From Lingula anatina (lineage: Eukaryota > Animalia > Brachiopoda), in contig CM120642.1 of NCBI GenBank assembly GCA_051362555.1, positions 33,294,001-33,358,000 on the forward strand: a stretch of 64,000 bases of DNA, written 5' to 3'. The notes below the pieces were generated by a model that saw nothing but the letters and a program-made list of their open reading frames with translations, ran no database searches and was not told the DNA's origin. Both the position numbers and the translations under genes were made by a program. Each line of letters begins with the position of its first letter. Position 1 is the first letter of the stretch. Of this stretch, positions 2,317 to 58,163 are shown one piece after another.

Positions 2317-2357
2317 GGTGTATTTGGAAGTATACCAGGACATTGTTTGAAACGTGG

Positions 2358-3266: not shown

Positions 3267-3500
3267 TCATAGGAAATTTATTTTACTCACCCGAATAGAC
3301 TTCGCCATGTCCTTTAGCGCTTCATTATTTAATTCTTGGGGTGTTGCCAAGTATCTGATTGTGGCAGCCCCTTCGAATTCTGGCACTTGGCCTTCCTCGT
3401 TGGCTTTGATCACCTCTAGTAATGAGGAATTGCCCACAACATAGGTATCCATAGTTGTGACTGACTCAACGAGTGCAGAACAATTTGTGTCAGAAAACAC
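3267..3500 (-). CDS. Truncated paralog of the 612-1115 ORF family
   Basis: Aligns with the N-terminal half of the 612-1115 protein, then diverges at a GTGAGT donor-like site. Confidence 0.35.
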   Translation of the reverse strand: MFSDTNCSALVESVTTMDTYVVGNSSLLEVIKANEEGQVPEFEGAATIRYLATPQELNNEALKDMAKSIRVSKINFL

Positions 3501-3776
3501 TATGTAAGGTGTTGGTAACGGTTGGGGTCGAACATTTTACATACTCATTGTTCTGCACCCCAAACATTTTATCATCATTCATTTAAGACTCAGCAATGGT
3601 CGTTATAAAGAGATGTCGCACAGTGCCTCCCATGTACTTTTATCAAGTGTTACATCGTAAATATCGAAGCATAAGCTTGACTTACTGGTCGATAAACAAT
3701 CTTCACCAGCGATTCCTCCTTGTTGATGTCCTACAGCACACGAATGCCATGGTTTCCTCCCAGCTGCTGGTCCATT

Positions 3777-4990: not shown

Positions 4991-5161
4991 CCGCAGTCCT
5001 CTCAACCACAATATCCATATTAGATCGTCTTATGTTTCAAAATCACAGTCAGCGGATGGGATAATTACTACCCTCAGGCGCTGAAAGTGATTTGGCGGAG
5101 CCATAGTTTTAATTAGGGTAAAGAGGAGAGCAACGAAATCTCCCACCGAATTTAGGTTGCC

Positions 5162-5467
5162 TCATGTAGGACACCACCCCATTAAAATTATTAGATGGGG
5201 AAAACCTATCAATATATTTGTCAACATATCCTTCAGGGCCTCATTAGTTAATTCTCGAGGCGCCAAGTATCTAATAACATAAGCCCCTTCCAGTTCTGGC
5301 ACTTGGCCTTCCTCGTTGGCTTTGATCACCTCTCGTAATGAGGAATTGCGCACAACGTAGGTATCCATAGTCGTGACTGACTCTATGAGTGCAGAACAAT
5401 TAGTGTCAGAAAACACTGTGTAAGATGTTAATAACAGTGGGGGTTGATGTCTGATAAAGATCATCAT
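5162..5467 (-). CDS. Copy of the SGNH-like ORF with a premature stop
   Basis: Same N-terminus as 612-1115; TGA after GWCPT although DNA similarity continues to 5051. Confidence 0.35.
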   Translation of the reverse strand: MMIFIRHQPPLLLTSYTVFSDTNCSALIESVTTMDTYVVRNSSLREVIKANEEGQVPELEGAYVIRYLAPRELTNEALKDMLTNILIGFPHLIILMGWCPT

Positions 5468-6383
5468 GAAGTGGCTTACACCTGTCTGTGTAAGGGATGT
5501 TGAAATGAAAAAGTCCCGGGTTTGCCCAGTGACCTTTATTATGGTTTACCGAGTTCCTTGGTTAAAAAGAAGATGAACTACGGACACGGATTCAAATCTA
5601 GTTTGATAAAAGTTTTATTTTTTCACAATGATTACTACTTTCATTGAATTTTGCTGTAATTTGTAATCTACAGGTAAATCCAAATTGTAATAAATTATAA
5701 TAAGCGAGTCCAGAGTTCTTCGTAACCCAACCGGTTTCACCATAGATCTCATTGTAATACTTCATGGCTCTGGGTTGATTTGGGCATTTCACCGCTCTGG
5801 CACACTTTGTGAAGCTGGAGCCTCTAGAAAAATCAAGATTTTTGGTTTGGTTTTAACAAAAGGTTTAATTTTTTGTTTTTTCTATATAACTACATATAAA
5901 AATCGAAGAAGACTATGGCATGGTCAGATGCAATGGGCAATCTTCTTGGTCTTAATCGTCAGGCCTGTAATTAAAAAGAGAAAAGAAAAATCTATTATAT
6001 AACGCACACATATAATGAAAGGATTTTCATATCAACAAAAATTCAAGTGTACACATTTTATTTCCTTTACCTATTTTTCTAATTATAGTCCAGTATTCCC
6101 CTCAATCAAGTACATTTTTTAGTGCTTACCAGTTTTAATCCTACTGGTCCGGTTCTTCCCCTTCCTCATCTTCTTCTTCCTATTGGGGAGGACCTGTTTA
6201 ACGTTCCAGCTTTTAGAAAAAAAAGGAATACATTTAATTACGCATTACATTTCACCTTATTACAGCATATAATGTTTACATTTTTTAGCGCTGTACTTCT
6301 CTTAACATTTAGTGATATAGTAATGTTTACATTATTTATTTACATATTTATATATACATATATAGGAATAGTTAAATTAATAG

Positions 6384-6665
6384 TTAACTTACCTCTTCAT
6401 GCAGATCACAAATGGTGTATGCAAACTGGTCCATGACTAGCTTGCTCAACACTGGGTCCCTATGTAACATAGCCATGGACCCAATGCTGATATGTGTGTA
6501 GTTCTGCACGCAAAAGTTTATGCAGCACGCCCTAAGGGACGTGCATCCCATTCTATCTGCCATTGACATTAAGTCAATGACATTTTCCGTATTTATACTT
6601 GTGTAAATTTGCTCCTCGCACAACTCCTCAAGCGTTGCTGCATTTTCCTCCCAAATAGCCTCCAT
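6384..6665 (-). CDS. Small BACK/BPM_C-like domain protein, copy 2
   Basis: Identical to copy 1 except for a divergent C-terminal patch (YTHISIGSMAMLHRDPVLSK). Confidence 0.6.
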   Translation of the reverse strand: MEAIWEENAATLEELCEEQIYTSINTENVIDLMSMADRMGCTSLRACCINFCVQNYTHISIGSMAMLHRDPVLSKLVMDQFAYTICDLHEEVS

Positions 6666-7115
6666 GGTGTATTTGGAAGTATACCAGGACGTTGTTTGAA
6701 ACGTGGTATTTATACGCCCCTCTTCCCCTAGTCTCAGCCAATCTGTATTATCAACGTGATTATGAAATGATTGACAGTTGACAATCTCATACCACCACAC
6801 TCATGTTGCAGCCAGTCTACCACCCCTCCCCACCCCCAAAAAAGTGTCTATCTGAAATGTTCAAAAAAGAGTCACAATTCAGTCTCCCTTGTTGCTTCTT
6901 CTCCTGTAACTCTGTCTTCGCCTAAGGTAAAATCTTCCAAGTGGAGTGCATAGGCTAACACTAAACTAGTAATACTAGCAAGTCCCGAGGATAATCCAGC
7001 TGAAACAAAAGGAAGCATAATAACTATGCATTCTACAAAGAAGCTACTGAATCATAAATTCTGTCTTCTAATTCTATTGGCGTTAAATAACTGATTACTT
7101 AAACAAACTATTCAG

Positions 7116-7451
7116 CTACTCTGGCTCTACGCGTAATTGTGGGCGAAAAATTAATTTTACCAGGCATCCTATGATTGCAATTACAAAAAATAAAGTTGCA
7201 GTGGTCAGACTAAAGGAAATAAAGTCAAATGTAGCCCAGTTGCACGTACAGATGGTACTTGAACAGTCAATCATTTCATCTACTGTATTCTCAATGGGCT
7301 TTGTAAGTGGTGGGAAAGTAGTACTATTAGAGGCTGCAACCGTTGTTTCTGTCGTCATATTCATCTGATTACAAAGGACATCCATATCAGTAGACTGGTC
7401 AGAAGGGCAATATCCATTAAAGACAATCACTACCTCCCCATCGGGAAACAT
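7116..7451 (-). CDS. Putative membrane glycoprotein, copy 2
   Basis: Identical translation to 2767-3102. Confidence 0.45.
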   Translation of the reverse strand: MFPDGEVVIVFNGYCPSDQSTDMDVLCNQMNMTTETTVAASNSTTFPPLTKPIENTVDEMIDCSSTICTCNWATFDFISFSLTTATLFFVIAIIGCLVKLIFRPQLRVEPE

Positions 7452-7615
7452 GTTGTCCAGGTTAACATGTTTTACCTGGTCGCCATCATCAAGAATTATT
7501 ACTCTCGTACCTAATAATATAAAAGAAACGACGCGCTATTTACATCAATAGATTGGATTGATACAATTATATTTTCCCAATGCTCTATATGTTTAGGTAA
7601 AAATGAATGTGTATT

Positions 7616-7849
7616 TCATAGGAAATTTATTTTACTTATCCGAATAGACTTCGCCATGTCCTTTAGCGCTTCATTATTTAATTCTTGGGGTGTTGCCAAG
7701 TATCTGATTGTGGCAGCCCCTTCGAATTCTGGCACTTGGCCTTCCTCGTTGGCTTTGATCACCTCTAGTAATGAGGAATTGCCCACAACATAGGTATCCA
7801 TAGTTGTGACTGACTCAACGAGTGCAGAACAATTTGTGTCAGAAAACAC
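7616..7849 (-). CDS. Truncated SGNH-like paralog, copy 2
   Basis: Near-identical to 3267-3500. Confidence 0.35.
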   Translation of the reverse strand: MFSDTNCSALVESVTTMDTYVVGNSSLLEVIKANEEGQVPEFEGAATIRYLATPQELNNEALKDMAKSIRISKINFL

Positions 7850-8193
7850 TATGTAAGGTGTTAGTAACGGTTGGGGTCGAACATTTTACATACTCATTGT
7901 TCTGCACCCCAAGCACTGGTCTCTGCATGCTCTTGAAAGCAGTCATTAAAAAACTGCAGCAGCTTCCCCTGATGATTTAGCTTCTTTTGGTTGTAGCTTG
8001 TATACGTCGTTAAGGGATGACAAGGTCCTGTTGCTTCTAGAAGCAATGTTCTTTACAATGTACGCATCGAATGCCATCATATGAGTACAACTACAATATT
8101 AACATTCTTAACACGGTATACAAACTTTTCTAATCATTAGGTAATATAGTAATGTTCACATTATTTATATATGTAAGAATAGTTAAATTAATA

Positions 8194-8455: not shown

Positions 8456-9831
8456 GGTGAGTTGAGAAGTATATGAGACCGTAGTTTGAAACATTGTATT
8501 TCTACCCCTCTTTCCCTAGTCTCCGCCAATCTGTATTATGAACAGAAATGATTGACAGCTGATAATCCCCTACCCCCACACCCATGTTCAAGTCAGCTTA
8601 TCACACCCCTTTTGGCGCTACACCCCCACCCCCCTAGTTAAATTCACGTAATGATATGTTATTTCTTAATTTGTGACTGTTACTGTAATCATTGCAGTTG
8701 CTGCGACGAGTGCTCTGCAATGTTATCCCATTCCAACTGTTGTAGTAACAGTTGTAGCAATAAATCAAAATAAAGGTAGGGATGCAGACTACAGCTGAAC
8801 TATTGAGACTGGTCAATTCCAGAGATAATTGGGCTGGAAAAAGAAGTTAACTACGAGTTCTTTGGTTAAAGCTGGGGAATCGCTTGAAATAATTATGTTC
8901 CGTTCTTTATACGTCCTTTGACACAACAGCTACCCATTGAGCAGTTTTCTTCTAAAATTCATACATGTCTGATGTACCAAATTTTAATATTCTCGTTTCC
9001 ATTTGGTTGCCACTAGTTTTACCAGAAATTCCAGTGAGACATCATACCTGCACAGTGCACTAGCTGAACATCCCGCTATATCCATACGTAGTCGATTCAC
9101 CTTGTGAGTGACTTGGCAATCACCAGCAAGATCACCATTTTCAAGATATAAATCTCATTATTATTATTGATAGAACTGCAAACTTTTTTGCTCGTGTATA
9201 GTAGATTTATAGGTTTAAGTAGTGTTGCTTTCAGTGTCTAACACATGTTGTTGAAGAAGAATTGGAAAAGTTATACAATTTTATATATATATATTTGTAT
9301 GTTATCTCAGTGTCAGAATTTTCAGAACTTGGAAGAGTTCCTATTTTTTTCACTTGATTGAACATAAGTGCCATTTGATCATTTTCAAAAGACAATCTAG
9401 AATTGGTATTTGTTCTTTGCCATCTACTAGGATCCTTGCATTAAGAAAATAACTTTTGCGGGTTAATTTTGTAAGTGAATGCACTATGAACTTCTATTAT
9501 AAATTGTAAAAATCCAGGCCCCTGGCCATATATTGTCACATAATGAGAAATTTCAGACCAGTGCGATTTACATAAGCAACCTATAGTGATCTTGGTGGTG
9601 CCGGGTCAAAGGAAATTTCCAAGAGAATTGTATGGTTTTATAAGAAAATCGAATGGATAAAACTTGTTCTCTATTATTGATAATATTAAATTTTGTCTTG
9701 TAGCAGGGAGGTAAGCAATGAGATTGTTATTCAAAGTACGTATTGTTTTCTTTGTACTACTGGTTTGATAGGGTTCAGAGTGTACAAAAAAAGAAAAGTG
9801 ACCAGTGAGGGGAAATAGGACCCTCATCAAA

Positions 9832-10054
9832 GGGACAGTTACCAGACCCTAACTTTGGACCGATCCATCTCCAAGGGGATTCCTGCTAAATTGTAATCAA
9901 CTTTAGCGGCTTAGATGTCTGTCACGCCTTGTGAAGCTGCTAATTAACTGTTGTTTAGTGGCTTCAGTAGGCATGCCAAACATCTAAGCTTAAAGCAATT
10001 TAGCAAAAAACCCATTGAAGATAGATCGATCTAGGTATAGGAACTCATTTTCTC
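9832..10054. mobile_element. ~250-bp MITE-like family A (GATCGATC-containing imperfect terminal inverted repeats)
   Basis: Shared blocks (gatccatctcc, gctaaattg, cttagatgtctgtca, cttcagtaggc, atagatcgatcta) with copies at 32263-32514, 33404-33606, 45726-45979 and a fragment at ~21593-21655. Confidence 0.7.
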
Positions 10055-10739: not shown

Positions 10740-26673
<15,934 letters not shown>

Positions 26674-38546: not shown

Positions 38547-39879
38547 CCCATTTCAAGTTTAAAAAATGTTCAGTGATGTAAGCATGTGGTAAAAATCCTT
38601 TTAGCTTTAACACAGCTTACCTCTTGAAGAGCCATGATAGCCATTGACTGCCATCTTAGCAAATCTTCTGAGTACATTTCTAATGCAATTTCCCTGACCT
38701 AGAAAATTAAGAAGACTCCTACACATCCTAGATAAATGCCAGGATACATATAAAAAAATCTAGCAAAAAAATTAAGGATATTATTTACAAAATAATAAAC
38801 AAATTTTTAAATAAATAAAGTATTTTTCTGAGGCATTTAATAACACATCAATAGGTCTCTCCATGTCAAATTTATTTAAGCAATTCCCACTCCAGGAACT
38901 GTGTTTGATAAATTTCTGTGATGGCCTTTCTTTAACTCTTACCACTCGAGAAAATGGCAGTTTTCTTATCAACAGATCTGTAGATTTTTGATACTTTCTG
39001 ATCTCCATCAATGCCCTGGTACCAGGGCGGTATCTTCTACGTTGAGGTACTGAAACGTCAAATAACCCCAATAAGTACTAGAACTTAGAAGTATCAAATA
39101 ATCCCCTCTCCCATAAAAATAAAAAAAATAAGATAATAAAGAATTTTTTCTTTAATGTTAATCATTCTACATTATTCTAATTTTAACTTCTGCTATATAG
39201 CTTTTGTTTGAAACAGTTATTTATTATTACTACATTAACCAGTACCAGTATATATTACAGATATAGGAACTCGGGGGCGAACTGGAGCCGTCTTCTAAGT
39301 CTTACAGAAAATGGTCTGAATTTTTAAAGCCAACATTGACAAATACCTAACTTTTTTTCTTTCACAAGAAGGTCATAAATGGAAGATGGATTAACAAAAA
39401 TAATTCGGAAGACTGTCAGAAAATATCTCTGGATCCACCCCTGGGATCTCCATTTTTCTTTTACAAACATTTAAAAAAATGTTATGCAAATACATGAACA
39501 TAGCCATATTTGAAATTGTTAATCTGAGCCTGCATTCCATAGATGAAAGTGGACCTTAAGAAAAAAAAAACGTGAAATGCAGGGGGCGGAGGAGCACAGC
39601 TCGGAACACACACGATCCTAATCATTCAGTGGTGGGGGTAGACAAACGTTGAACACATGAGATGACATTGATTAAGATGCCAAGTTCTACACTGTGACAC
39701 ATACCTGGCTCCTGAACACGCCTTCCACTGCCGGCAGGGGCTCTTTCCTGAGATCTTCGTCTTGGACTTGAAGTTGACGGCGCGGCTTCTCCGCGACGGC
39801 GAGGTGAACTTGGCGGGGTCCTCCTTGAGCTAGGACCAGCTTTTCTACGACTGCTACCCGACTGAGTTGGGCGAACCAT
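38232..39879 (-). CDS. CENPA: Centromeric histone H3 variant CENP-A (cenH3), 4 coding exons
   Basis: Exons 39705-39879, 38943-39049, 38621-38698 and 38232-38363. Histone fold [74 protein letters not shown]. CenH3 diagnostics: no Q68, F84 to W, T107 to A, longer loop 1, and an unrelated Arg/Ser-rich N-tail. Confidence 0.93.
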
Positions 39880-40350
39880 GTCAGTTTCGGTTTGTTGGTA
39901 AATGCCTTGAATCTCTCATTTCAACAATAAATCGATTTAATTGTAAAGTTTTGGAAGTTTGGCTGTCAGAAAATTAAAATATCCGCTTTCATTTTGCGCA
40001 TGCGTCAAAGTAAATTTTATTACCTTCAAACAAAGAAGAGGTATACTTGCGGTAAAATTAGATTTGTGTATCAACATAACAGTTTTACTCAAAAATGGTT
40101 TCGTTGTCATGGTTATTCAACAAGCCGTAGAAAATGCTTCTATTCTGTCGTCGAATTCTTTAATAAACCTGTCTGTACTGTTCGTTTGCGAGCACTTGTC
40201 AACCAGATGTAACCAGTTATATCCAGCCCACACAAACAACAACACGGGGCATGCGACCTATTCCTGACCTGTAGATTTCAGCTAAAACTGGGTGATTACA
40301 ACTCGAGGCCTTGCAGCTGGTAAACTGCTCTAACCAAGTTTGGATAATTT
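39880..40350. promoter_or_regulatory. Putative bidirectional promoter between CENPA and SARDH
   Basis: Head-to-head genes; CpG-richer; NRF1-like TGCGCATGCG at 39995-40004; CHR-variant CTTGAA at 39906-39911. Confidence 0.45.
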
Positions 40351-41294: not shown

Positions 41295-42243
41295 ATGTTG
41301 CGTGCGGGGAGAATACTGCTGTGTGGGCAGAACGCGGCCAGGAGGCGCTGGACCCCCGTGCTCAGCAGATTCTGTACTCAGAGCGTGCAGAGTGGAGTGC
41401 CTTATGAGTAAATCAACTTTTTATTAAGATATATCTCTGCTTTTAGTCTGGTTTTCAATTACAACAATTCTGGGTATAAAAAAATTCACTTGCCAACCAG
41501 CATCATTCAACAGGAAGTTATTATATTGCCTGCTAGCAGAAATGTAAATATTTCATGCTTTGTAGCCAGAATATGCTGGTGTCATTATTTCTTTATTTGA
41601 ATTAAAATTTGTCACAGTGGATCTGCTTTTTTGGCATGCTTGATGCAGCATTCAAGAGCTGTTCGTAGGGGGGCAATTTGAATTTTAATTAAAAAAATTA
41701 ATCTCATTATGTACAAAGGTTAGATTAAACAAGATGCATATATCGTAAATAACTGATCATCTTCCAAAAGCTCAAAAACACTTTAAATTTGCCCACTTGT
41801 TCTTCTCAACAGTATTGACAATAATGTAGTATTTATATATTACTGTAAAACGTGTGTGTACCCCACTTTGTTTACCATAATTTTGTTTACTCTTGTTTCA
41901 TTAGACATCAGCTGAAAGATCACACAAAAGATGCGCCCACAGAGGTCCCGGCGTCGGCAGATGTGGTGATTGTAGGGGGAGGTGTTATAGGGTGCGCCAC
42001 CATGTATTACCTCACCAAGATGGGCCAAACTAATGTTGTATTACTGGAGAAAGATGATCTAACAGCTGGGACAACTTGGCACACTGCTGGTAAGCTTACA
42101 AATGATCTAGTGAAATATTAGAATTATATCAATAACCAGACATGAGTTATTTCTGCGGAAACACAGAATTCCACGTTTTTTAATTCACTTCTAAGGCGGC
42201 ACTTGGCCCGCTGGCAGGTTAGGTGTCCATGATAAATGTTCAG

Positions 42244-42286
<43 letters not shown>

Positions 42287-45200
42287 CTAGGCTCATATCT
42301 GATAACCCTGTGTTATAATTTTATTTTAAATCAACCCATTGAAAAATGAAAATACTCTGCTTTCTAAACGGTATTATTAGCAGTCACAGAAATCTGATAA
42401 GTAAATAAATCCCCTTTTTGTTCACTTGTACCCTTTACTCCTACACACACATGGTGAATATAGTTCATCTCTTATTGTAAACCAACTCTTCACTTTGGAA
42501 TCATGAAGGTTACTTCATTGAATATTCATCTCAGATGTTGCTGTTGGTGATGTGTAGCATAAAATACCAGAACAGAAGTCAGAATAGATATAATATATGT
42601 CCTTTCAGGCTTAGTGTGGCGTCTTCGGCCCAATGATGTTGACATCCAGCTCCTGAACCGTAGTCGTGACCTGATGCAGGAGTTAGAAGAGGAGACAGGG
42701 GTCAACCCTGGCTGGATTAACAACGGGGGGCTCTTTATCGCCTCCAGGAAGGAAAGACTGGATGAGTACAAGAGACTACACACAGTGAGTACTTCAACCC
42801 ACTGATAGTTATAATAATGATAATATTTATTGCTTAGAACCCTGCTACACTCATGCAAGCATGCTAAAACTATGGGTCCTACTGGCCATGACGGATAAAA
42901 TTTCCAAGAACTGCTAAAAGTTACTAGGTTTGTTTAGGGGCATTTGAAATTTATGGTCAGTTGTCAAAAAGTCTTTTAGTTTTAATTTTCAAAAGTACCA
43001 GGTGTTTTTAAAGGTCTTTAATATGTCTGCACATGTTTAGGTACTGAAATTTTAAAAGCAGTATTTAAGTCACAGCAAGTACCAGATATTGACTCAGTTT
43101 ACTGCTATTTCCAGCTTGGCAAAGTATTTGGTATAGTGAACCAGGTGTTTTTAAAGGTCTTTAATATGTCTGCACATGTTTGGGTACTGAAATTTTAAAA
43201 GCAGTAATTAAGTCACAGCAAGTACCAGATATTGCTGGGATAGTGCTAACACTCGCCAATTTAGCCAAATGCTAAAACTGACTGAAATTGGCAAAACAAA
43301 TTGGAGTTGATTTGACTCATTTTAGTCAAATTTAAACCATTTGGAGAAAAAAGCAATGAAAAAGTAATTTGGCTAAACGAAAAAAATTGCAATAGCGCCA
43401 CCCCAGTATTGACTCAGTTTACTGCTATTTCCAGCTTGGCAAAGTATTTGGTATTGAGTCCCACGTGTTGGGCCCCTCCGAGACCAAAAAGCTGTACCCT
43501 CTGCTTAATGTGGACGACGTCTACGGCACTGTGTACAGTCCAGGAGATGGAACCATAGACCCCGCGGGCTACTGCACGGCGCTCACACGTGCTGCTACAC
43601 GACTGGGAGGGAAGGTGAGAATGGCCCCATTCAGAATAGGGGAATTACTAGTCCGAGGGTCAAATATGGCCGATCCTCTTGAATACTTCCCCACGGGATA
43701 TCTATTCAGTTTCTATTAGCGGATTAGACAGCAAGCTTTGTAGTGGGCTGCCATATTTGATCCTCTGACAAGTTAGTCCCCTATTCTGAATGGGGCCAAT
43801 ATTGTAGAGTGTTGCAGTATTCAGCAGTGTTACAGGGCTGACAGCTCTATACTTTACCACGGATCATTTCAAGGTTGAGAAGATTGCTTTTCTTGCCTTG
43901 AATATAAACAGCGATGACAAAATTTTACCATGTACGTACATTGGTTTTGCACTGTGTCTCTGCACAGCTTATTCCCTGAAGTTACAAACACTGTTCCGTG
44001 TCAATATTATTGGCAATTAATGCCTTATTTTATTCAAATTCTGTGGCTATTATTTCTGCACTATGTTTGCTTCACATTTTCTTGCTGTCAGGTGCTGACC
44101 AAGTGTGCAGTGACCGGTATAGATGTCCAGACTGATGACTTTGGCACCAGGAGGGTCCAGGCTGTCCAGACGTCCAGTGGGACCATCAAAACTAACTGTG
44201 TGGTCAATTGTACAGGTATATCACATATATTTATGAGAGGATAAAAGTCAATAAACACATGCACACATACACATGTTTGCGCTCTTTCACTTGCTCTCTC
44301 TCATCATGCATATAAAGCTTATTAGAATCCCACACTTTATGTCAAAGACCTTGAAATGTGACGAGTATACTAATAAATGTACGGTTTCTGCAGGATCAAC
44401 TCTGCTTAAAGCATCTATACAAAAAAGCTTTATTGCTCCTTTAAATTTAAGCTAAATTAAGTAAAATCTCTATGTCATTAATATCTAGGTGTCTGGGCAC
44501 CCAAGATTGGTAAAATGGCAGGTGTAAAGACCCCATTGGTTGCTATGCGCCATGCGTACGTGGTGACGGAGAGGATCGAGGGGATTCAGAACATGCCCAA
44601 TGTACGAGACCATGATGCCTCAGTCTACCTCAAACTGCAGGGCGATGCCTTGCAAGTCGGTGGCTATGAACCTAACCCCATATTTTGGGAAGATGTAAGT
44701 AATAAGATGTTAGAAAGCAGAGCCTGAAATAAAGTTTTCTGTTAGATGAAACATATTTACCAATTTAGAGAACTTGAGATTAAAAAAGTAATGAAATGAG
44801 GGTGAATGTGAGTAATTGGATTTGAGGTTTAAGGGGAAAAAGTAAATTTGTATAGTCAGCCTGCAGGAGTGATTCTTAAAAATTTTTGCTTAATTTTGTT
44901 AGAAAATAAAACAACAAACAAAACATCCATTTGATGTTTGGCCTATGTGATAATGTTTGTATAATGTGTACAATAAATGTTATAAAATATACTATCTTTA
45001 AGATGTTATTTCTATACTTAGGTTAAGGATGACTTTGCATTCAGCCTGTTTGACCTGGACTGGGATGTGTTCAGTGTTCATATAGAGGGCGCAGTGAACA
45101 GAGTTCCCAAGATAGGAGACACCGGAATCAAGTCTACAGTCTGTGGGCCAGGTAAAAACAGGGACAGCCGACCATAAGTTCATTTGTTCTTTTAGTCTTA

Positions 45201-48200
45201 TCACCTCAGTTATTTTAGTTTGTACGTAGAACTTGGATTTCCCTATCAACAAAGGTGTAAGTGATGTAACATGCAAATTTTTCTGTCATATTTATCTTTT
45301 ATTATCTATTATCTATCATGTTTTTCTTCAATAAGAAAATTATTGAATTATAGTGAATAATTTTTGCATACATTAACTTAAAGAATTAGATCAAAAATAT
45401 AAGAAGTAAATGCATGCATGTGTTTTGTATTGTTTTATATTTCAGAGTCGTTCACCCCTGATCACAAAGCTCTCCTTGGAGAGGCGCCAGAAGTGAGGGG
45501 ATTTTTTCACGGTTGTGGGTTTAACAGCTTAGGAATGAACTTAAGTAAGTCCTGAAATTTCTTCTCAGAAATTCGTTATCAATTTTAACCAATCACCACT
45601 TTCAGAGGCATTTACTCCTGATCACCAGCCGTTGCTAGGGGAGGCGGTGGAGGTTCGAGGTTTCTACCACGCCTGTGGTTTTAACAGTTTTGGGATGAAC
45701 AAGAGTGAGTTAACAGTCTAAGACTGAGTTCCCATACCTAGATCGATCTAACAGGATCGATCCATCTCCAAGGTTTTTCTCACTAAAATTGCTTTCAGCT
45801 TGAGCGCGTAGTTGTCTGGCACACCTACTGAAGCTGCTAAACGATAATTAATTACTCCATAGCAGCTTCAGTAGGCTTGACAGACATCTAAGCTGCTTAA
45901 GTTGATTGCAATTTAACAAAAAACCTCTGGAAGATATATCGATCCATATGTAGTACGATAGGGTCTGGGAATGGTCCCTAAAGCCAGTGCATGCTTCTCA
46001 TCATGTCTTCTCCCAGCTGGCTGGATGATTTAGTGTAATAGGCCAGATTTTCTAGAACCATCTTTGCTATATACGTATGCTGGTGGCAGGCTTGATGTTG
46101 GTCCCAGTGTCATGTGACAGAAGTTGTCTTGTTGGTCTTGGCAGTCTGTCCAGTGATGTGTTATTACCCTCGTTTGATTTTCCAGGTAGCTTCATCAGTG
46201 TTGACATGTGATTGTTTGATTGGTGGTATGAAGACTTGGTGTGTGTTGTTTGAAAATGATGAAAATCAGTGAACTTTTTATATTTGAAATACACAGCTAT
46301 TATTATCTGCATGTGTGTACAACCACATGTATATACACCTCTCCATGGTAATCTTTCTTGAATTTTTGATAAGCTCAATGCGATAACATTTATAAAATTT
46401 TGTTTAAAATTCTACATATAGCACCTGGAGTGAACCAGTTTGATTTGATTAAAAATTTTGTTTGTGCACGCATGCATGGATCTAAACTTATAGTTTTGAA
46501 TATTATAGTGTGTAGGAAGTAGAAACTAGTAATTATTATTACCTTGCTAGTCATCTGCTTGACATATGTGTATGAATTAAGTTATAACAAAGATGTATGA
46601 AAAGAAAAAAAACCTGACCATACTTTCCCTGTTTAGGTGCAGGCTGTGCCAAGCAGCTAGCTGACTGGATCATACAGGGACGACCAACACTGGACATGTA
46701 CGGCTATGATATCAGGTGAGCAAACGCATGGACCTTGATTTATTTTTGGTCACAAAGTTGAGCTAAGAAATTAAGGTCTTATTAAATGTTAGATAAGAGA
46801 TTGGAGCAATTTGAGTAGATAGTTTGTCAAAATTAAAATGGCAATTTGGTGTAGTTGAAAAAGTACTTTTAGTGCTTATTCTTTCTATTTGTAAGTTTGT
46901 GTACTGCTGCTTTAGAAAAAAAAAACTACTTAAATAGTCATGCAGTAAGAAACGCTGTATATTTATTTTTTTCATTTTTATACTTCAGACGTTTCACAGA
47001 AAAGCTAACAGACAACTACAAGTGGATCGTAGAGAGGAGCCATGAGGCATATGCCAAAAACTACTCCATAGTTTACCCTCATGATGAGCCCCTGGCCTGT
47101 AGAAATATGAGGAAAGATGCCCTCACTGATGTAAGACCGCGGAAAGGTTTTCACATTTAAAACATTCATTTTCTTAAAATATATAGTGCATGTTTAAATG
47201 ATCAATAATGTTTAGTTCAGAATACTTGGATATTATAAACAAAAGAATGGTATTTTCATTGACTAAAAGATGAAGAGAAAGTGTTCTGTTCCATGTATAT
47301 CTTTTTGTCTATTTAGGATACTTGAAGTTTGTAAAGCTTATGTGCAATCAAAGACAAAGAATGTAAGGAACAAAAGAAGCTAAATTTTTATATTTAACCC
47401 TGTCTGTTTTAACAGAAATAGGAATTGCTAATCATTTTTCTTTTTCTCTGCCATGTTTAGACACTGGAGGAAGCTGGATGTGTGTTTGAAGAGAGACAAG
47501 GCTGGGAAAGACCTGGGTGGTATTCCCCCCAGGGTCCTGCTAAGGTAATAGTTTATATACATATAGATATTATAGATATAGATGTGGGTGGTATTCCCCC
47601 CAGGGTCCTGCTAAGGTAATAATTTATATACATATAGATAAGATAGATATAGATGTGGTTGGTATTCCCCCCAGGGTCCTGCTAAGGTAATAGTTTATAT
47701 ACATATAGATAAGATAGATATAGATGTGGGTGGTATTCCCCCCAGGGTCCTGCTAAGGTAATAGTTTATATACATATAGATATGATAGATATAGATATTA
47801 TAGATATAGATGTGGGTGGTATTCCCCCCAGGGTCCTGCTAAGGTAATAGTTTATATACATATAGATAAGATAGATATAGATGTGGTTGGTATTCCCCCC
47901 AGGGTCCTGCTAAGGTAATAATTTATATACATATAGATAAGATAGATATAGATGTGGGTGGTATTCCCCCCAGGGTCCTGCTAAGGTAATAGTTTATATA
48001 CATATAGATATTTTAGTATCCCAACAACTGTATAATCGTAAACATTGCATGAAATGTGCTCAATTTGTTAATTCATTTGTAATGAATTTAAGATGTGCAT
48101 ATTGATGATTTTGAAGCAATATCTATTACTCCGAGTAAAGTGACTCTGTTGTGCACTGTTAGCTTTTAATTAAATTTTAAATGAGTATTTTTATTTCCTC

Positions 48201-51200
48201 AGCGGCTGAGCTATGATTACTATGGTTCCTATGACTACCAACTCCATGATCCTAATACTTACTATGAGCGACTGCAGAATGACTATACCTTTGACTTCCC
48301 TGTGCAGCATGATATTGTTAGTACAGAAATTACTTGTCATTTTCATTGGGGAAAAATAGTGGATTTTACAGATACTGTATTTTTTAGATCATAATTTCTT
48401 TAAATTAGAATGTATCTATTGAATGCCACTCTGTAATTCTATTCTTTGTAGTAAAAGCACCACAAATGCTTTTTTCAAGATTAAAAATCTGTCAAGTGAT
48501 TCAGAGAAAAATTTCATCAGCTGTGTTGTGTTTTAAGAATAAAGTTGTAATTTTTCCTTCAGTCAGTAGCCGATATTGAAATTGCTTTTTGCAATATATG
48601 AATGTCTGTCCAGAGAATCTTTACAGTGAATTAGGCTATTCAGGTGAATAGCCTCTGTCCATCCCCTTTGAGTAATATATATTGTAGGCTGGCGTCCTTT
48701 TTCAAGTTGATCTTGATATGAACATGCCTTGAAAAAGATTATTTTATTACTTAATTTGTGCTGTATGCATGAATCTTCTTCCAAATTTTCACAGCAGTTT
48801 TTGCTCTTTTAGGTATTCAATCATACATGTGAAAATCTGAAAGCATTCTGAGATATATATTTTAGTAAATTTTCCATTGGCAGATTGGCAAGGAGTGTCT
48901 TACGTGCAGAGAGTCAGTGGCCATCTTCAACATGTCGTACTTTGGCAAGTATTACTTAGTGGGGCCTGACGCACAGAAAGCTGCAGACTGGATCTTCAGT
49001 AATGATATGCAGAAACCTGAAGGTAAGTTTAATAAAATAATTCTAATCAACTGTTTATCAAAACAATTGTTGAAAAGACACAATATTCAATATTTGTGGA
49101 AATAGGACTTTTTCTCTTTCTAAATACAATAAACATACATACTCTCATCTGTTTTGCTTTAGTAAATATAAATAAATTTTGATTAGAACTAAGTTTATAT
49201 TATATGATAGTCTCTCTGGGCTCTGACAGCCCAGTTTAAGGGGTCAATCCCCCCCCCCCCTCTGGACTTGCCTTGGCCAAACTTATTTCAGCAGTTTTCT
49301 AAAATGTCTTGACATTTTTGTTAAACATGCGCTCTTGATCTTTGAAAAAAAATTGAAAACTTATAATGGTAATAGTTATGTAATGAATAGAAAATTTTCT
49401 TTCTATGTAGGTCACACTGTATATACTTGTATGCTAAACCAGGCAGGAGGTGTGGAGGCAGATTTAACTGTCAGTGCTATTGAACCAGGCTCGGGAGGAC
49501 CTCATGCACCCAAGTTTGAAGGTAATGGGTGACACAGATTTAAACAATCTTCCCTGATTTTTAAACAGTGGACATTCAATAAATACATGTATTTTATCTT
49601 TTACCTTATCTTTGACAACACAAACATACTCTATCCTTCTCTTGTTTTCCTTCATGTTTGTCAGTTTCTATCTTAAGTGGTTCTGATCCACATGTAAACT
49701 TTGCAAAGCTGCTTCTGTATTTTGAAGTTATTTTACTTTGTACAATTGTTCTGTTTTCAGGGAAAACATGTTTTCACAATAAGCCCATCTAACAAAAATA
49801 TTTAAGTCGGAAATTGTTGAAATTGTTTTGAAAATTTTAAAACCCCCTTCATTCTTCATGCCCGTCCCTGATTTCTGATGGTTACGTAATTGTTGCTATT
49901 CCAGGTCGAGGTTTCTACCTGGCGGCAGGGGGCGGGGCGGCCCAGCAGAACTACTCACACATCCAGACGGTGATCCAGGACCAGAAGTTTAACTGTCATC
50001 TCATTGACCACTCCGACGACATGGCACTCATGAGTATTCAGGGACCCAAAAGGTGAGATTGTGAGACGAGTTGAAAACCAGACAAACTGAGGCAACAAAA
50101 AAAGGCCTAGAAATGTTTATCTTAGTTAATGCTGTTTTCAAGTGATTCTAAGTCCAATTTCTTTCATTCTTTTACAAAGTCAGTCTCAGTCTGTGCATAA
50201 TTTCTTTGCCAATTACACGTTTCTAAGATAATAAGCCTCTTGCAACAAGATGACTACATGTTGACTTGTAAGGTTTACTGAATAGCTTGCCCTCCATAAG
50301 CTAAAGATTGCTGCAGATTAAGCTTTCAGACCTATTGAATTTTAACTTTTACCAATGAAATGATTTGAATATGATTTTCATGTAAAATAAGTCACGTTCT
50401 AGTAATCTTAAAGAATAGGGAGTTGCTAGTCAAGGTCTGGTTGTCCCAAGTAATTGTGTTAGGAGAGATGGACTGATTGTGTTTTGTACTGGAATTGCTA
50501 CCCTCAGAAACATGCTGCCTTTAGAAATTTTGCCAATGGCTAAAGATTTTGTATTTTGGCAAAGAAGCAAGAAGTAAAATTGGTTTAATCTGCTCATTTG
50601 CCATTGATTTGGTTAAGAATTGTTTTGATTGTATTATTTAAAGTACTTGTTTAAAACGAAAATACCTCTGCAGTGCTGTCATAGCCCAGTGGCTGTTTAG
50701 TTTTCAAATTCTCGTTTACCACCAGGCATCCTAACTTGGAACATGATTGCAAAAATGAGTCAGAAAAGATTATTTTAAAGAAACTGAGTGTATACTTACA
50801 GTAAAATTTTAAACCAAATTTTTATATAGCTTTTATACAACTACTTAATTATTAAAGTTTTATGTGAAAAGTGTTTGTCTTTAATAGGCAGTGGCAGAAA
50901 CGGGTTAATTGATTTCTGCTATAGATTTTTATAACTTGATTGAAGAAATTAAATCATGTTTTCTGGATATCTTCTAAAAGATGAATATAAAAAGTTGCCC
51001 ATATCATTATTGCTTAAAGTCTTTTTTTTTTTTGGTGGGGGGAGTATTAAGTCATGTCCAGGTATCTTTTTGCAAGGTGTAAGAATCCCTTACACCTAAG
51101 TTAATTAAACATGGAAAATGCTTTATGTTACATAGTACTAATAATGATTTTCCCAAACATTTCTCCCATGAATATGTACTGCCTGGAGTGAGATCAGGCC

Positions 51201-54200
51201 TTTGTCCTCCTCCGTAGCCCTTACATTGTCTCCGCCGTCAGCCATATTGACACACAGCGCGGGGGGAGAGATGGGGGTATTATGAGGCCCGGGAGCGTAC
51301 GGTGTGCTTAGTGTCACGTTCTGTTGACTTTATAACCGGGATTAACTGTGTTCAAGATCAGGTGTTAAGTAGCTACAAACATTTGGGGGCGTGTTCACAC
51401 TTCTGCAAATCTGATTCAGTCTTTTACAAATTCAGCGGTTATGATTGCAACCAAGTTGATGTCTGCACAGCATAAGTCCTTTGCTCCTTGAAAGATGCAG
51501 GGATGGGCTGAATGAGTGATATAAGTTATATGGAAAGTTATGCTGGGCAGGTAGAGGCTTGATTGCAATCCACTTGCTGTAATTATTCAGAATAAAACGG
51601 GCATTTTTGTCAGCTCCTGCTGTGGACATGGTCATGGCAGCCGGATTGTGTTAACAGTGTGAAGATACTTAACTGGTTACTGCATATAGTCCTAGCAGAG
51701 CTGTGTAGTGAAGGAAATGGAAAGTAAACTGTTTATATAAAAGAGCAATGAAACATGGCTGAGAGACCGGAGAATGGAGCTTTGTGTGTCATTTAGGTCT
51801 GAACCATTTCTTGGTCAAATATGTGCCTTTCACTTACTTCACCAAGTCACGTTTAGATCTTAGATGTTAAATAAAAACTTTTCATTTCCTGTCTGTAAGT
51901 AGCCCTTGAGATTTACGCTAAGACTTGACATTAGTTACTTGAAAACTGCTAAAAGCTAATAGCTACAAGGACAATATGTCACCTCGCTTGAATACTCTGC
52001 TTGTCTTGCAGTTCCATAAATTCATAGTATTTTTTTTTCAAATTTATTTTATTTTAGATGAATGTAAAAAATGTTAATATTTTCTCAAAGAACTGAGCAA
52101 ACAAACATTTTTAACCAGAATACTGGAATTAGAGGACATTGCATATTACTTAAAATGCTGTACTTTTCTATGAAAACTAGTCAAAGTAGCCACATTTTCT
52201 GCACATTTATTCAGTCCTCTGCATTTCATCTTCTGAATGATAGTTTTTAAAGTCTGTACATCTATTGTTAGTCATTCTAATAACAATGAAAACATTCCTC
52301 AAAATTTATAGAATAGATTGCTCTTACTAGTTTTAACAAGTTCTATGTGAAATAGGTGTAAAAGCTTTAAATAACGTGTCGAATATGCCAAATAAAAGAC
52401 CTGCTAGATGAATCCCTGTATTATGATTTCTAAAATGATGAACTTTTTATGAAACTATAGCAGGTGTTGGTGGATGTCAAACAGTAAGATATCCCACACA
52501 ATAGCGTGGAACTCTCCACTCAAGTCATGCTAGTCTGCTACATGATTTATTAAAAAACTAGTTCCATCCTTTGAAATGAAAATACATAAAACATGTTTAG
52601 TAAGTCACTCATAATCAGTCCGCAACTTCTTTATTAAAGATTAAGATTTTCTTGAAATTTAAGTGTATTTTAACCCAGAAGTTCTATTAGCGTGTGCCCG
52701 TTTAACCTAGTAAACCTTGGTAATTTTCTCACTGGGTTATAAGCAAGCAGTCTGGCCTGAAATTGACCACTGTTGACCTGTAGTTGACCTTTAGTACACT
52801 GACCTCATGAAACCAGTGAGGTTTTCTTTCCAAGGGACATGAGAAATCAGCTGGATTAAATACTTCTAATCCGGAATAACCTGTTCAGTCATTGGGATCG
52901 ACACGGGCAGATCCCAGAGATCTTAATAGGAGTAAAAAAATGAAGTGATCAGAATGATATTTTTTGGAATCTACCTTATGATATGTGGGTCCCCAACCAA
53001 AAGTAGAAAAGATACGGAAATTTGCATCTCCTCCCCTATGTCTTTTTTTGAGATTTACTACATGTTCAGTTTAATATGGTAGAGTAAAATAAATTGTCAG
53101 GGATGGGTATGATAAGAGTTAATACAGCAAAAATGACACTTTAAAAAAAAATGTATAATTCCTAGCTCTGACACATGGATGGTCATGAAGAGTTGATGAG
53201 GGGGAGGGGGATAGAAGGAAAGATATTCAAATCTGATTGATGATACCTTACATTTAACACACACAGAAATGTTATATATGTTTCTAGTGAATAAAGCCAG
53301 AGAAAATTTATGTATGTTAGGATAAAACTAAGAATTTTTTAGTTTTGATATGAACAGGGAAAGCTGCCCCAGAACTTTCTTGTCCTTAGTTGAGAATAAA
53401 AAGTGGAAATTCAGTATATTTTGGCATTGAGAAGATAACAGAAAAGTTGGTGATTATATGTCGAGTATGTTGGAAACAAATGGGAAGAATGTAAATCTGT
53501 TCAACTGATTGCTGATTGGATTCAGCGAAAGTCACCTTACAAAACTGAAACAATTCACGTCGTAGTTAGACCACACGTGAGATATAGGCAGCTTACTACT
53601 GCCACTGGGAGTTAATGCCAGCTCCGCGGGAACCTCACATTAACACCTGAAAATTGGCAGGGAAGTGACCAAGCACCTGAGCTTAATTACCTGGTCAATG
53701 TTATGTCATACCTGCTCACTTCCTGTACACAGGGACGTAAATGTTTTGTGTACCAGTGAGGCTGAGAAGTGACAAGTTAATTATGGCTGATTACACTTGT
53801 AGAGTCTGAAATATGGACTGCTGATAAGAGTTTGACGGGTTGATAAGAGATCTTCTGTCCAAATTCAGCTCTTTTGGTGTCTGAAAAAATTTGTTGCTGT
53901 ATTAATTTCATGAGATTGTGTGAAGACATGATGAATATCAAATTGGTGTATTTGTTCTTCGAACGTTTTTTTGCAACTCATATTTGGGCTGTGCACTTAG
54001 TTTTGTTATGGGAGGTTTTAAATTTTCTCCCATCTATTTACCAACTTTGTGAAGAAACGTGTCTAATAGATACATGGGGAGGATTTTCTAATCTGGTTGA
54101 CTTTGGGCTAATCAGACTTTACAGCAGATAATCCCAGATCTGATGGCGTGGAATAGTGTTAACATTCCCACAGTTTGTCATCTCCGGCAGTAGAATCACT

Positions 54201-57200
54201 TACCATGTCGGCACTTAAACACACCTTTGCTTGGCGGAGATTTTAATCTTCGTGCCGGGTTACCACGAGAACACCTCCACTATTATTGGTGAAGGGAAAT
54301 GAGGGACAGGCTTGTATTTAGTTGTCATATGAGGCTGTCTGGGGCCAACTTCAGCTGTGGAATGGTATTTGGGCTGACCAAGGACATGTATAAGTTTTTG
54401 GGTTGACCAGATTTGTTATATTTTCCCGATTTTTCTTTCTGAAACAAAAACTGAATTTTTTTCTACCCCTACAAAGTTTATTGAAAGAAAACAATGTAGA
54501 TTGTCAAATTTATGAATAAAAATCATACTTTTATATGAAAAACTTATATTTTGCACTTGACTGAAGATATTGCCTTTCACGGTTATTCTTCTCAAAATTC
54601 TTGCACCTCATTCATTTTGTACATAATTTTTATAATGAATTATCTTTTCAATTCATAGATTCCATAGTTGATGAAACTTTTTAACCCTGTTTGCCCCCTC
54701 CTCTTCCCCCTCCTCTTCCCCCTCCCCCCCCCCCCCCCAAAAAAAAAAAATCCTTTAAGGAAGCATGTAATATATGTATGTAAAATGTTTGTTCTTTTTC
54801 ATTGTTCAAAAAAAATTGTATCTGATATGAAGCAGCTTGCTAAATTTTAGTGAGAGAAAATGATAAACTGAACAAAATTTCAGCATAATTCCACTGCTGA
54901 ATTTTGGGCATAAAAAATGGTAAAATAGAAGAAGGAAACTTGTACAATCTTTATGAAATTTTAGATATTTTAAAAAGAAAAATAACAAAGTGAAATAAAA
55001 TAACCAAACAAGCATTACATTTTTTAATAAAAATGAGTCCAAGGCCAGTTGCTGCCTGAGAGATTGGTGAAGGTGTCATTCTCACATAGATTACATCTGA
55101 CCATGCTAACACATTACTTCCCCTGTAAGTACTATGATTAGGGTCAGGTTGATGGACTAATACTAGCCCTGGACTGAGGAGGGGAGAGATAAAATCAGCG
55201 TAGTCTCCATGACATCTTTACAATATATGTAGTAATCATAGTAGTAGACTGAATTATAGGATCAGCTTCCTTTACAAATATTCTTACTGTAATTTCTCAT
55301 AATACTACATTGTTGTTTTTTCCTGTTATTATCATTCATAGGTGATGTTCCTTCATTATTTTTTGTTGTGTGTAAATTTGATGATTGTTTTCTTTAGAAA
55401 TATCTTCTTGGATTCTTTCAACTATTTTGAAAATGAATATATTGTAATATATTTTCATTAGAAAACCAATGAAATTTTGATTTTTTAAATATTAAATAAG
55501 AATTTTCAAAATTGAGACACATCACTTCACATAAATGAAATCAATTTGTAGCATTAATTTTTGAACATCGAAATGCCCTCCAACAATTTTTAAATATTTT
55601 TTTTCTTTTTTTCTTCTCAGACAAACTTGAACTTGTTTAGTTTTCCCTAGGGAGGGGTAAGGGTGGCGTGTACCTGACATTTCAGGGGTAGAAAAGCAAC
55701 CTTTCATAATAAAAACATTCCTCTTCCACTAAATTAAACTTTGTTGCCTCACTGGAACACAAAGTCAATAATTACCATTACACTGTACACAATCAGTGTT
55801 ATTACTCAGTGAATGTAGTTGGAAACTTTTTCCACTCATCAAGTATTAGGTCATAACTGGTGTGACCTAGAAAAATGTAAATTTAAGCTCATTTTTTTCT
55901 CTTTGTGTATAGGTTATTTTGTCTTATGAAGCGATACATGTTATTAATAGTCATAAGTGTCTTACAAGAGCGTAGCCTTTGACTTTCCTGACCTAATGAT
56001 AAGACCTCTTTCATCTATTTACCATGTAGAATGTTTCAAGATTTAAACAAAGTTCACCTTCAGTAAGTACACTTGAATTGTTATTTATGACTGCCCTTGT
56101 TCTCAGCTTCTTACACATGCCACCTCCTGTATTTACTCAACTTGCTCATATTTGAAAACTACAGGTGCCCTTTTCAAACCCATTAATTGAGCTCATGTTA
56201 GTTTTGAACTCCAGTTTATTTTGTATTTGAAAAATGTATTTATTTTACTTTTTTGCAGGTTTATTTATTATTTTATATCGAAACATTTACATTTGATCAA
56301 AATTGCAAAGTAAAAAAATGCACCTGGAAGTCAAAGTAAAATTAAGAAGTTGGATGCACTGGAAGTAATCATCATCAAAGCAAAAAATATCAAAGTGATA
56401 ACAGTCATTAGCTGTGAAAAGTGTTAAAAGGATTTTTTTCGCACATTTTGAAATGCTGGTTCTTATGAGAATGACACTGTTTCAAAACAGACGTGTTTTG
56501 GGAATAAATAGGAGAAGAGCGATCTTTTCATCACACTTTGTATGCATATGTTTAGAGAACCGATATCTTTACAGTCGTTAATTTATATATCCATAGTTAG
56601 GAACATTCTTAAGTGTGTGGGAATGTTTTGCGAACAAGAGTAACTGTCTCAATATCTGGGATAATATTTACTGGGCAGCATTCCAGCTTCCAGAACTTTT
56701 GTTCCCGTACCAAAACACTGCCATCCCATCTTACAAGTAGAAGCCACTACCAACACAAATGCTTTCATAAATTCCGCATTGCTTTCCCTGTCCCCTTATT
56801 AAGAAGGTAATAGAAATCGGTGTGCTGTCATAGACCTCGTATATAAATATCCCTACTTAGAACGGAAAATGTTAAACAGGATCGCCTTCTTAGTTGTGTA
56901 ATGATTATATTGTAAGGGAACACTATTTATACAAATGCTGCAGTTTACAGGTAGATTACGACCAGAGAACCCTGATTAGGAGATTTAGGCTATGTGAAAT
57001 GACCGGAGCTTACATGGTCAGTGTTTTGACAGTAAACTGCTGGACATAGTGGGCATACAGGCCAGGTGATTAAATATGTTGATATGGACCACCGAACTTC
57101 TGGGTGGGAAAAATGTCCACTTTCCTCCTCTGTGTGCTTTATTTATGCAGGTAGCACTCCTTTTTGGCCATCAATTTACTCAAAGTCTATTTTGGGGAAT

Positions 57201-58163
57201 TGTTCTAGTGTTGAGGACATAACCAAGGATACATTTTATCCCACTTGAAAACTTATTTCATGCTGAGATTCTGTTATAAAAAATAATAGAAAAAAATCAT
57301 AAAAAAGCAAAATGTCATGTTCTTTGACAAATCCGAGATTGACTAGTGCTGTATACTGGCCAGAAATTTTGATCAATGAAAAATTTAAAGATAATTTTTT
57401 AAAATCCAATTGTGAAAGAAGTCTCCTGTAGCATATTTACATTTAGTGAAGGCCCAAAACAACAAGTAACAAGTGTTCAAAGCAGTGTCAAGACTCACAA
57501 CTGATGGCCTTCCTCTTCTCTTAATTTACAAACCAGCTTGCTAAAATTCTCTGGTAAATGTGCATTTATGACTAATTTTTATTTAATTTCCAGCCGAGAG
57601 CTGCTCCAGACTCTTACTGATGCAGATCTTAGCAATGAAGCTTTTCCGTTCTCCACTAACAAGGTAATGTCATGATTATCAGTGTCAGTTATGGGAAACA
57701 TAATTTTCACAATGTGCAGACCTTTGCTAATATTAAGAGGAATTTGTTTTTAGCTCATGAGTTGCAATGATTAATAAAATGAAATTTAAGTATACTCAGT
57801 ACAAAAATGGTAAAAAAGAAAAATTGAGACCTAACTTTGATCAAACATCACATTAATTAACAATCGTTGTGAAAAAAATACAGTTTCTGTTAATGTTTAA
57901 CTTGGCAAAATTTACTGATTTTTCTTATTTCATCAAAAGTGACCATTTGCAAAATCTGAGATTTGTGTCCTTTCAGGTGGTCACTGTTGCTGGACATGAA
58001 GTGCGTGCGCTGCGTCTCTCCTTCGTAGGAGAGATGGGCTGGGAGTTGCACGTTCCCAACGTGTCGTGCCTTGCCGTGTACCATGCCGTGATGGATGCGG
58101 GTGCTAAGTATGGCATCACTAATGCTGGCTACAGAGCCATTGACTCACTAAGTCTAGAGAAAG
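41295..58163 (+). CDS. SARDH: Mitochondrial sarcosine dehydrogenase (FAD domain plus GcvT/folate domain); 3' exons lie beyond the window
   Basis: Arg-rich transit peptide [19 protein letters not shown]; [91 protein letters not shown]. Exons: 41295-41407, 41905-42089, 42609-42784, 43435-43614, 44092-44215, 44489-44694, 45022-45151, [45446-45544 or 45606-45704], 46637-46715, 46989-47130, 47461-47544, 48203-48316, 48884-49022, 49411-49521, 49905-50052, 57594-57663, 57977-58163. Confidence 0.95.
43235..43406. mobile_element. MITE family C copy
   Basis: TATTG duplicated at 43230-43234 and 43407-43411; the empty site is visible in the adjacent duplicate (agatattgactcag at ~43084). Confidence 0.88.
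43623..43797. mobile_element. MITE family B (PIF/Harbinger-like)
   Basis: TIR ggccccattcagaatagggga / tcccctattctgaatggggcc with a 3-bp AAT duplication (43620-43622 and 43798-43800). Confidence 0.88.
45446..45544 (+). CDS. SARDH: SARDH alternative exon 8a
   Basis: ttcag| ... |gtaagt, 99 nt, phase 1-1, [33 protein letters not shown]. Confidence 0.9.
45606..45704 (+). CDS. SARDH: SARDH alternative exon 8b
   Basis: ttcag| ... |gtgagt, 99 nt, phase 1-1, [33 protein letters not shown]. Confidence 0.85.
45726..45979. mobile_element. MITE-like family A copy just downstream of exon 8b
   Basis: gagttcccatacctagatcgatc ... gggtctgggaatggtccct; reverse-orientation match to 9832-10054. Confidence 0.7.
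47514..48010 (+). repeat. ~71-bp minisatellite (7 copies) containing the 3' end and donor site of SARDH exon 11
   Basis: Unit tgggtggtattccccccagggtcctgctaag|gtaatagtttatatacatatagat... repeated seven times. Confidence 0.95.

Follow-up and report, generated by a model that had tools for sequence, protein, structure and literature searches.

A tandem pair of alternatively spliced homologous exons in the sarcosine dehydrogenase gene of Lingula anatina

Swaps between tandem homologous exons are already known in enzymes. For OGDH exons 4a and 4b, and for alpha-tropomyosin exons 2 and 3, PMC7969005 ascribes exclusion to a branch point that lies less than about 50 nt from the upstream donor, and a steric threshold of about 50 nt between donor and branch point is given both there and in PMC5740500. 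In coq-2, exons 6a and 6e are mutually exclusive, and according to PMC8659336 the resulting substrate switch was proven genetically and involves two residues that are the same across lineages. A tandem exon pair in ACOX1 is catalogued in PMC8373072 and PMC5740500, the former of which describes three separate origins of that pair, in chordates, in echinoderms, and in molluscs.

The case of SARDH is apparently new. Word searches of the supplements of two catalogues of such exons, both of human genes only, returned no entry for SARDH or DMGDH, and no paper on mutually exclusive exons or exon duplication in SARDH was found in the literature searched, which consisted mostly of sources other than subscription journals. 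The pair of exons in the SARDH gene of Lingula anatina that we describe is real, expressed, old, unannotated, and recurrent in a second lineage.

The gene was identified from the exon just upstream of the duplicated pair, which is 100% identical to Lingula anatina RefSeq XP_013401693.1 (P0003 hereafter), a protein named sarcosine dehydrogenase. A 17-exon model in the window, by which we mean the whole 64-kb stretch of DNA analysed, reproduces residues 1–762 of P0003 except for seven residues (Table 1). These seven, among the 37 residues of exon 1 (41295–41407), all fall within residues 14–28; residues 38–762 are identical, and residues 763–916 have no match within the 64-kb window. The window allele of SARDH differs from the RefSeq allele. 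P0003 contains the Pfam domains DAO, FAO_M, GCV_T, and GCV_T_C, and these four domains and the fold are common to the Lingula protein and the animal SARDH/DMGDH/DMGO family (PDB 5l46, 4pab, and 1pj5). A quick tree of 34 rows placed P0003 among animal SARDH proteins, and its identity to named animal SARDH is 61–69% (51% for the midge protein) versus about 30% to DMGDH, which was absent from the trees. By domains, fold, and similarity we class the Lingula protein as an animal sarcosine dehydrogenase, the name itself coming from database annotation. The RefSeq protein uses the first exon of the pair, exon A, and the cluster of XP_013401693.1 has a single member.

Table 1. Positions of the SARDH features in the window
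Feature	Position	Strand	Basis
SARDH coding exons 1–17 (residues 1–762)	41295..58163	+	gene model against P0003; Pfam domains
Exon 7, upstream constitutive, residues 329–371, ends in phase 1	45022..45151	+	P0003 model; reads join it to A and B
Exon 8A (exon A), major alternative, 99 nt, phase 1-1, residues 372–404, RefSeq form	45446..45544	+	model and junction reads
GT-AG intron between A and B, 61 nt	45545..45605	+	YTRAY adenine at 45588 (intron position 44)
Exon 8B (exon B), minor alternative, 99 nt, phase 1-1, absent from RefSeq protein	45606..45704	+	reads; depth in 4 of 8 runs
Palindromic repeat element, MITE-like (our own label)	45716..45985	.	inverted arms; second copy at 9831–10031
Exon 9, downstream constitutive, residues 405–430, completes helix begun in exon 8	46637..46715	+	P0003 model; reads join it to A and B

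The surroundings of the pair hold further repeated segments. The intron that precedes exon 4 of SARDH contains a 68-nt, 91% identical copy of the exon 4 acceptor and first bases (43082–43149), which is a possible decoy acceptor for that exon. At 47514–48016, about seven tandem units of about 71 nt each repeat the last ~30 nt of exon 11 together with its GT donor and form a row of possible alternative donors for exon 11. Three of the open frames in a 2.9-kb tandem segmental duplication (696–3566 and 5051–7915, 97.4% identity) have no Pfam match; the arrangement may reflect a genuine duplication or two haplotypes placed one after the other in the assembly. A gene for a histone H3-like protein, whose N-terminal tail is unusual and which we infer to be CENP-A-like, lies on the minus strand (38784–39915) in head-to-head orientation with SARDH.

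Exons A and B are adjacent, homologous, equal in length, and identical in phase, with no stops and with intact AG/GT splice ends (tttcag/AGTCGT to ACTTAA/gtaagt for A and tttcag/AGGCAT to ACAAGA/gtgagt for B). The two agree at 67 of 99 nt; at the protein level, 24 of the 32 whole codons together with the split Glu codon give 25 identical residues of 33. The differences are distributed 7/4/21 over codon positions 1/2/3, with a saturated pS of about 1.0 and a pN of 0.15 (Fisher p about 2e-13). Because exon B has remained intact while synonymous sites have become saturated and replacement divergence has stayed low, these sequences support an old tandem duplication under purifying selection. Exon B matches P0003 residues 372–405 at E 1e-11, so the likeness of A and B is not due to chance. 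No third copy of exon 8 is present within the 64-kb window, and reading from exon A into the 61-nt intron meets a stop. The sequence-only reading had described two homologous 99-nt, phase 1-1, stop-free exons with intact splice sites and 25 of 33 residues in common, an old duplication kept by selection, and a 61-nt intron with a branch-like TTTTAAC motif; the present analysis bears out this description in each respect.

In protein databases, the exon B form was not encountered: a search yielded nine hits among 13 candidates, all of them single-copy, which is weak evidence, and no exon-swapped isoform pair occurs among 262 long homologues, in which nine near-pairs differ by two residues and look like cross-species differences. 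The predicted Acipenser sinensis protein P0078 contains the 29-residue vertebrate counterpart of the exon twice in a row with one residue different, which is either a recent duplicate or an assembly artefact. The palindromic repeat begins 11 nt past the exon B donor, and a fragment of it is also found at 21590–21655. In each run, hundreds of RNA reads match it in part, which indicates that the repeat family is widespread in transcripts. Judged from its position beside the B donor, the repeat may affect the use of B.

Splicing of both exons was observed in RNA reads. Of nine runs matched by species label, eight were mapped (X2 was left out), with 6–30% of each sampled, in two passes at 88% and 93% likeness. 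Exon 7 is joined to exon A by 31 reads in six of the eight runs (X6 15, X5 4, X8 4, X4 3, X9 3, X3 2, X1 0, X7 0), and exon A is joined to exon 9 by 40 reads, again in six (X6 23, X5 7, X9 4, X4 3, X3 2, X7 1, X1 0, X8 0), where a SNP shifts the listed junction of the X9 reads by one base. With A skipped, exon 7 is joined to exon B by three reads with three starts in run X4 (0 in X1, X7, and X8); this row carries the flag "between: not known" and has no counterpart in the 93% likeness pass. Two reads in run X3 join exon B to exon 9; their listed junction runs from 45705 to 46642 and has four letters in between, which we interpret as the first bases of exon 9 carrying two synonymous changes. 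Both exons of the pair are spliced to exons 7 and 9, with a thin five reads in two runs at the junctions of B. All four alternative junctions that had been named from the sequence (45151>45446, 45151>45606, 45544>46637, and 45704>46637) are seen in these reads.

Neither a joint of A to B nor a double skip from exon 7 to exon 9 appears as a row in either mapping pass of the eight sampled runs, where a row requires at least 3 reads and depth is too low to rule on rare joints. In X4, the bin that covers the entry into exon B (45566–45625) holds 69 bases, or 3 x 23, which places the origin of all three B-entering reads in exon 7. The 23 bases in the same bin of X5 fit one read from exon 7 to B, and the 96 unassigned bases of X6 possibly leave room for a few A-to-B or intron-retaining reads. 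The share of B in exon depth is 0.39 in X4, 0.57 in X3, 0.06 in X5, 0.08 in X6, and 0 in X7, X8, and X9, with no depth on either exon in X1; overall, B contributes about 14% of the summed depth of the bins. The share of B varies between runs with marginal significance (Fisher p 0.04–0.12), and regulation of B use between runs is suggested. B is a real, minor, spliced alternative exon. The earlier claim of mutual exclusion stands insofar as both exons are spliced as alternatives, whereas its strictness goes further than rows of at least 3 reads can carry it. RefSeq records one protein for the gene, so that an expressed form of SARDH is missing from annotation.

SARDH has no solved structure of its own, and its nearest PDB match is DMGDH. 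The A form was modelled with AlphaFold from a 93-sequence alignment (mean pLDDT 90.6; a single-sequence fold, at 31.6, was useless), and the model compares with human DMGDH at a TM of 0.83. In this A-form model residues 372–404 run from strand 364–374 into helix 398–418; the ends of the exon lie inside these secondary-structure elements, and the segment is the same for both exons. The start of helix 398–418 is taken by us to contact the flavin ring. Model and alignment support an exon that encodes a strand, a loop, and the start of a helix, which align with the end of the DAO fold where substrate and flavin are bound. A profile of the segment matches monomeric sarcosine oxidase over ranges of equal length (7–64 versus 317–374) and maps residue 403 to Lys348 of that enzyme, a residue that anchors the substrate carboxylate according to PMC12582975. 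Residue 400, three residues from the Lys348-equivalent position, aligns with the His of GFSGHGF, a motif that appears in the profile output. Asn403 is common to A and B, the nearest changes from A to B are Leu400Phe and Leu404Lys, and in the profile alignment the A/B changes flank the Lys348-equivalent position and do not replace it. An assignment of Lys404 of B as the replacement of sarcosine oxidase Lys348 was dropped, as Lys404 maps one residue later. The sequence-only reading had placed the segment at the flavin and substrate site, which agrees with this alignment, whereas its two "different active sites" reach beyond a comparison in which Asn403 is unchanged. No residues in this segment are named in the available part of PMC5082570, which deals with DMGDH contacts.

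Residue usage was compared across 167 eukaryote-type homologous segments, a redundant and fish-heavy set. Gln379, Val386, Phe400, and Lys404 of exon B each occur in 0 of the 167, and Ala380 and Leu400 of exon A occur 5 and 15 times, respectively. At position 380, B keeps the commoner Pro where A has the rare Ala. Residue 400 is variable across the family (A, S, L, M, or G). Asn403, present in both Lingula exons, contrasts with Met in most homologues and is otherwise seen in chelicerates. With a branch length of 1.14 versus 0.18 for A, B is by these comparisons the more derived copy, for which a new function and relaxed constraint are equally good fits. Chelicerate SARDH proteins (P0135, P0138, P0142–P0144, P0148, P0465–P0473, P0475, and P0476) have Leu400 and Asn403 as in exon A and do not group with Lingula in the trees, and the correspondence is probably convergence at the same pocket. 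The notion that chelicerates hold both exon types was discarded, as all chelicerate proteins with the segment have one motif.

Tandem copies of this exon also occur outside Lingula. Of 36 loci obtained by scanning metagenome contigs, seven carry the segment as an isolated 99-nt exon; the other 29 are transcript-like, have the segment fused to its neighbours or split differently, or are distant. In three of the seven (L005, L008, and L009) the exon is present twice in tandem, at 99 nt and phase 1-1 each and with boundaries and phases exactly as in Lingula. The introns between the copies measure 74, 81, and 73 nt, respectively, and the copies are intact (pS 0.98–1.13, pN 0.06–0.11). A single copy is seen in L026 and, lying between flanking exons that could be mapped, in L024 and L025. 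L017 (positions 1–304) is a close relative of L009 with a Gly-type exon; the 204 nt upstream of this exon contain a (GA)n run and no first copy, which points either to loss of that copy or to expansion of the intron.

Residue 400 is Ser in the first copy and Gly in the second copy of all three tandem loci, and the first 12 nt of the between-copy intron are identical in L005 and L009; this common pattern and intron start suggest one duplication in the L005/L008/L009 lineage. On the contigs of L005 and L008 there are just the two exons, and only these residues and the intron start link them to L009. L009 has the same intron positions as Lingula across residues 99–478, and its best match is P0003 (73%). 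In a careful tree (23 rows, LG+G4, with long-branch midge and oomycete rows left out and no mollusc included), L009 groups with L017 (100/98), these with the annelid Owenia (90/60), and with Lingula at 83/93, and L009 and L017 are likely spiralians, possibly annelids, the support being moderate. What is new here, and goes beyond the sequence-only reading, is the presence of the same SARDH exon in tandem in other, likely worm-related, animals. Only at residue 400 do the two copies differ in every one of the four pairs (Lingula, L005, L008, and L009); this overlap is not significant, as 8 of 33 positions differ in Lingula, the pairs amount effectively to two independent lineages, and the site is variable, and we treat its recurrence as a lead.

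The relationship of the copies points to two origins. In a tree of the 99-nt exons, A and B group together (96/95), and forced order-matched clades give p-AU values of 0.05 and 0.07, with 0.13 for the reversed pairing. Asn403 is found in both Lingula copies, and Asp385 in all copies of the L005/L008/L009 lineage. We favour, with fair confidence, an independent duplication in the second, spiralian-like lineage. A single ancient duplication shared by Lingula and the L005/L008/L009 lineage is disfavoured by the same tree values, though not firmly, and exon homogenisation after one old event could mimic the grouping of A with B. A second, probably independent duplication would make the exon a testable case of convergent splice-switch evolution.

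On balance, we lean towards a reading in which the tandem exons are spliced in each other's place, their joining is likely blocked by the 61-nt intron, and a kinetic difference between the products is predicted at the flavin/substrate pocket. One SARDH gene would then give two enzyme forms that differ beside the flavin cofactor, a major A form and a minor B form with residues 400 and 404 swapped at the start of helix 398–418. We propose tentatively that Leu400Phe and Leu404Lys at the helix start retune substrate affinity or flavin reactivity and do not create a new reaction; from the residues involved, a different substrate preference of the two forms is plausible. Should the forms differ in activity, the pair would constitute a natural residue swap in an enzyme that lacks its own structure, with residue 400 as a specificity site.

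Exon B could instead be an old duplicate under relaxed selection that is spliced at a low rate and yields an enzyme of little or no activity, leaving the function to A. The low overall share of B and its lack of depth in three runs of study P3 are what such a duplicate would show, as are its long branch, its four residues unseen among the 167 homologues, a lysine at helix position 404 that is otherwise L, A, M, F, S, Y, or G, the repeat just past its donor, and the annotation of A only in RefSeq; yet B has stayed free of stops and indels and has its splice sites intact although synonymous sites are saturated, keeps the commoner Pro380, is spliced on an allele unlike that of the window, and reaches about 40–57% of exon depth in X4 and X3. 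We regard a relaxed, largely idle B as unlikely, and retain two working enzyme forms as the preferred reading. Of comparably low probability is a broader extension of that reading, by which spiralians would repeatedly have made a SARDH exon splice switch at residue 400, tuning the breakdown of N-methyl amino acids. Such a switch would act on sarcosine and betaine-derived osmolytes by tissue or by oxygen or salinity state and, if true, would give burrowing marine invertebrates a second switch of the coq-2 kind in their mitochondrial metabolism.

The intron between A and B is exceptional in length, at 61 nt versus 208–7541 nt for 30 control introns (the 16 remaining ones of SARDH and 14 of a neighbouring helicase gene in the window), and is under a third of the next shortest. 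The joined exons of the helicase gene, which we label CHD1L-like, gave one open frame. TTTTAAC is the sole YTRAY match in the A–B intron, and its A stands at position 44, which is 18 nt short of the 3′ end. As a predictor the motif performs weakly in this window, occurring at −18 to −40 in only 13 of the 30 control introns. Exclusion is probably steric, with a candidate branch point 44 nt from the A donor that would keep A from being joined to B: at this distance U1 and U2 would be too close to assemble together, and the clash would prevent the joining of the two exons. The steric enforcement suggested previously is upheld in the extreme shortness of the intron and in a branch-like A under ~50 nt from the donor, whereas the branch point itself is a motif prediction. 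Enforcement through a frame shift and nonsense-mediated decay is ruled out, since both exons are 99 nt, a multiple of three, and double inclusion stays in frame and escapes decay. A product with both exons would contain 33 additional residues between the strand and the helix of the FAD domain.

It is also conceivable, though improbable, that the exons are alternative and yet are kept apart by splicing regulators or RNA structure, or are kept apart leakily, with misfolded A+B protein removed. A mechanism of this kind would sit well with a branch point predicted from a motif, with the extra bases of X6 in the intron bin, and with a steric rule that, according to PMC5740500, fits only 9% of human clusters. 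The related loci may be read in either direction, as YTRAY lies at 51 and 56 nt in the between-copy introns of L005 and L008, at or over the threshold, and is absent from that of L009 (which also has an ordinary intron of 83 nt), but the between-copy intron is short in all four tandem loci. The size of the Lingula intron relative to the 30 others argues against regulators or leakage, as does the lack of strong competing RNA pairing (folding z-score −1.54) and of any long inverted repeat linking the exon flanks apart from the palindromic element itself; steric exclusion is retained as the preferred mechanism. That the pair is an assembly artefact, or that the B reads derive from a paralogous gene or another haplotype, is scarcely credible, for although the paralogue comparison was confined to the 64-kb window and the window differs from RefSeq at seven N-terminal residues, 32 of 99 nt differ, mostly at third positions, unlike collapsed alleles, reads join the locus's own flanking exons to B, and the layout recurs in three unrelated contigs.

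The arrangement in SARDH is reminiscent of OGDH and alpha-tropomyosin, which likewise have tandem homologous exons with a branch point in the intervening intron below the steric threshold, a candidate one in SARDH, and OGDH is, as SARDH, a mitochondrial dehydrogenase. In OGDH and alpha-tropomyosin the branch points, which have been mapped, are distant from the 3′ splice site, whereas in SARDH the whole intron spans 61 nt and the branch point is predicted by motif. ACOX1, an FAD-dependent oxidase, also swaps an internal homologous exon and offers a precedent for repeated duplication of one exon; its exons, at 161 nt as compared with 99 nt in SARDH, have a length not divisible by three, and it belongs to another fold and enzyme family. 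As in coq-2, a case that includes annelids and molluscs, the exons of the SARDH pair exchange a small number of core residues in an invertebrate metabolic enzyme. The coq-2 residues are constant across lineages, whereas residue 400 of SARDH is lineage-specific (Leu/Phe versus Ser/Gly) and its effect is a prediction. Taken together, these comparisons suggest that the SARDH pair is like OGDH and alpha-tropomyosin in its likely exclusion and like coq-2 in its possible outcome.
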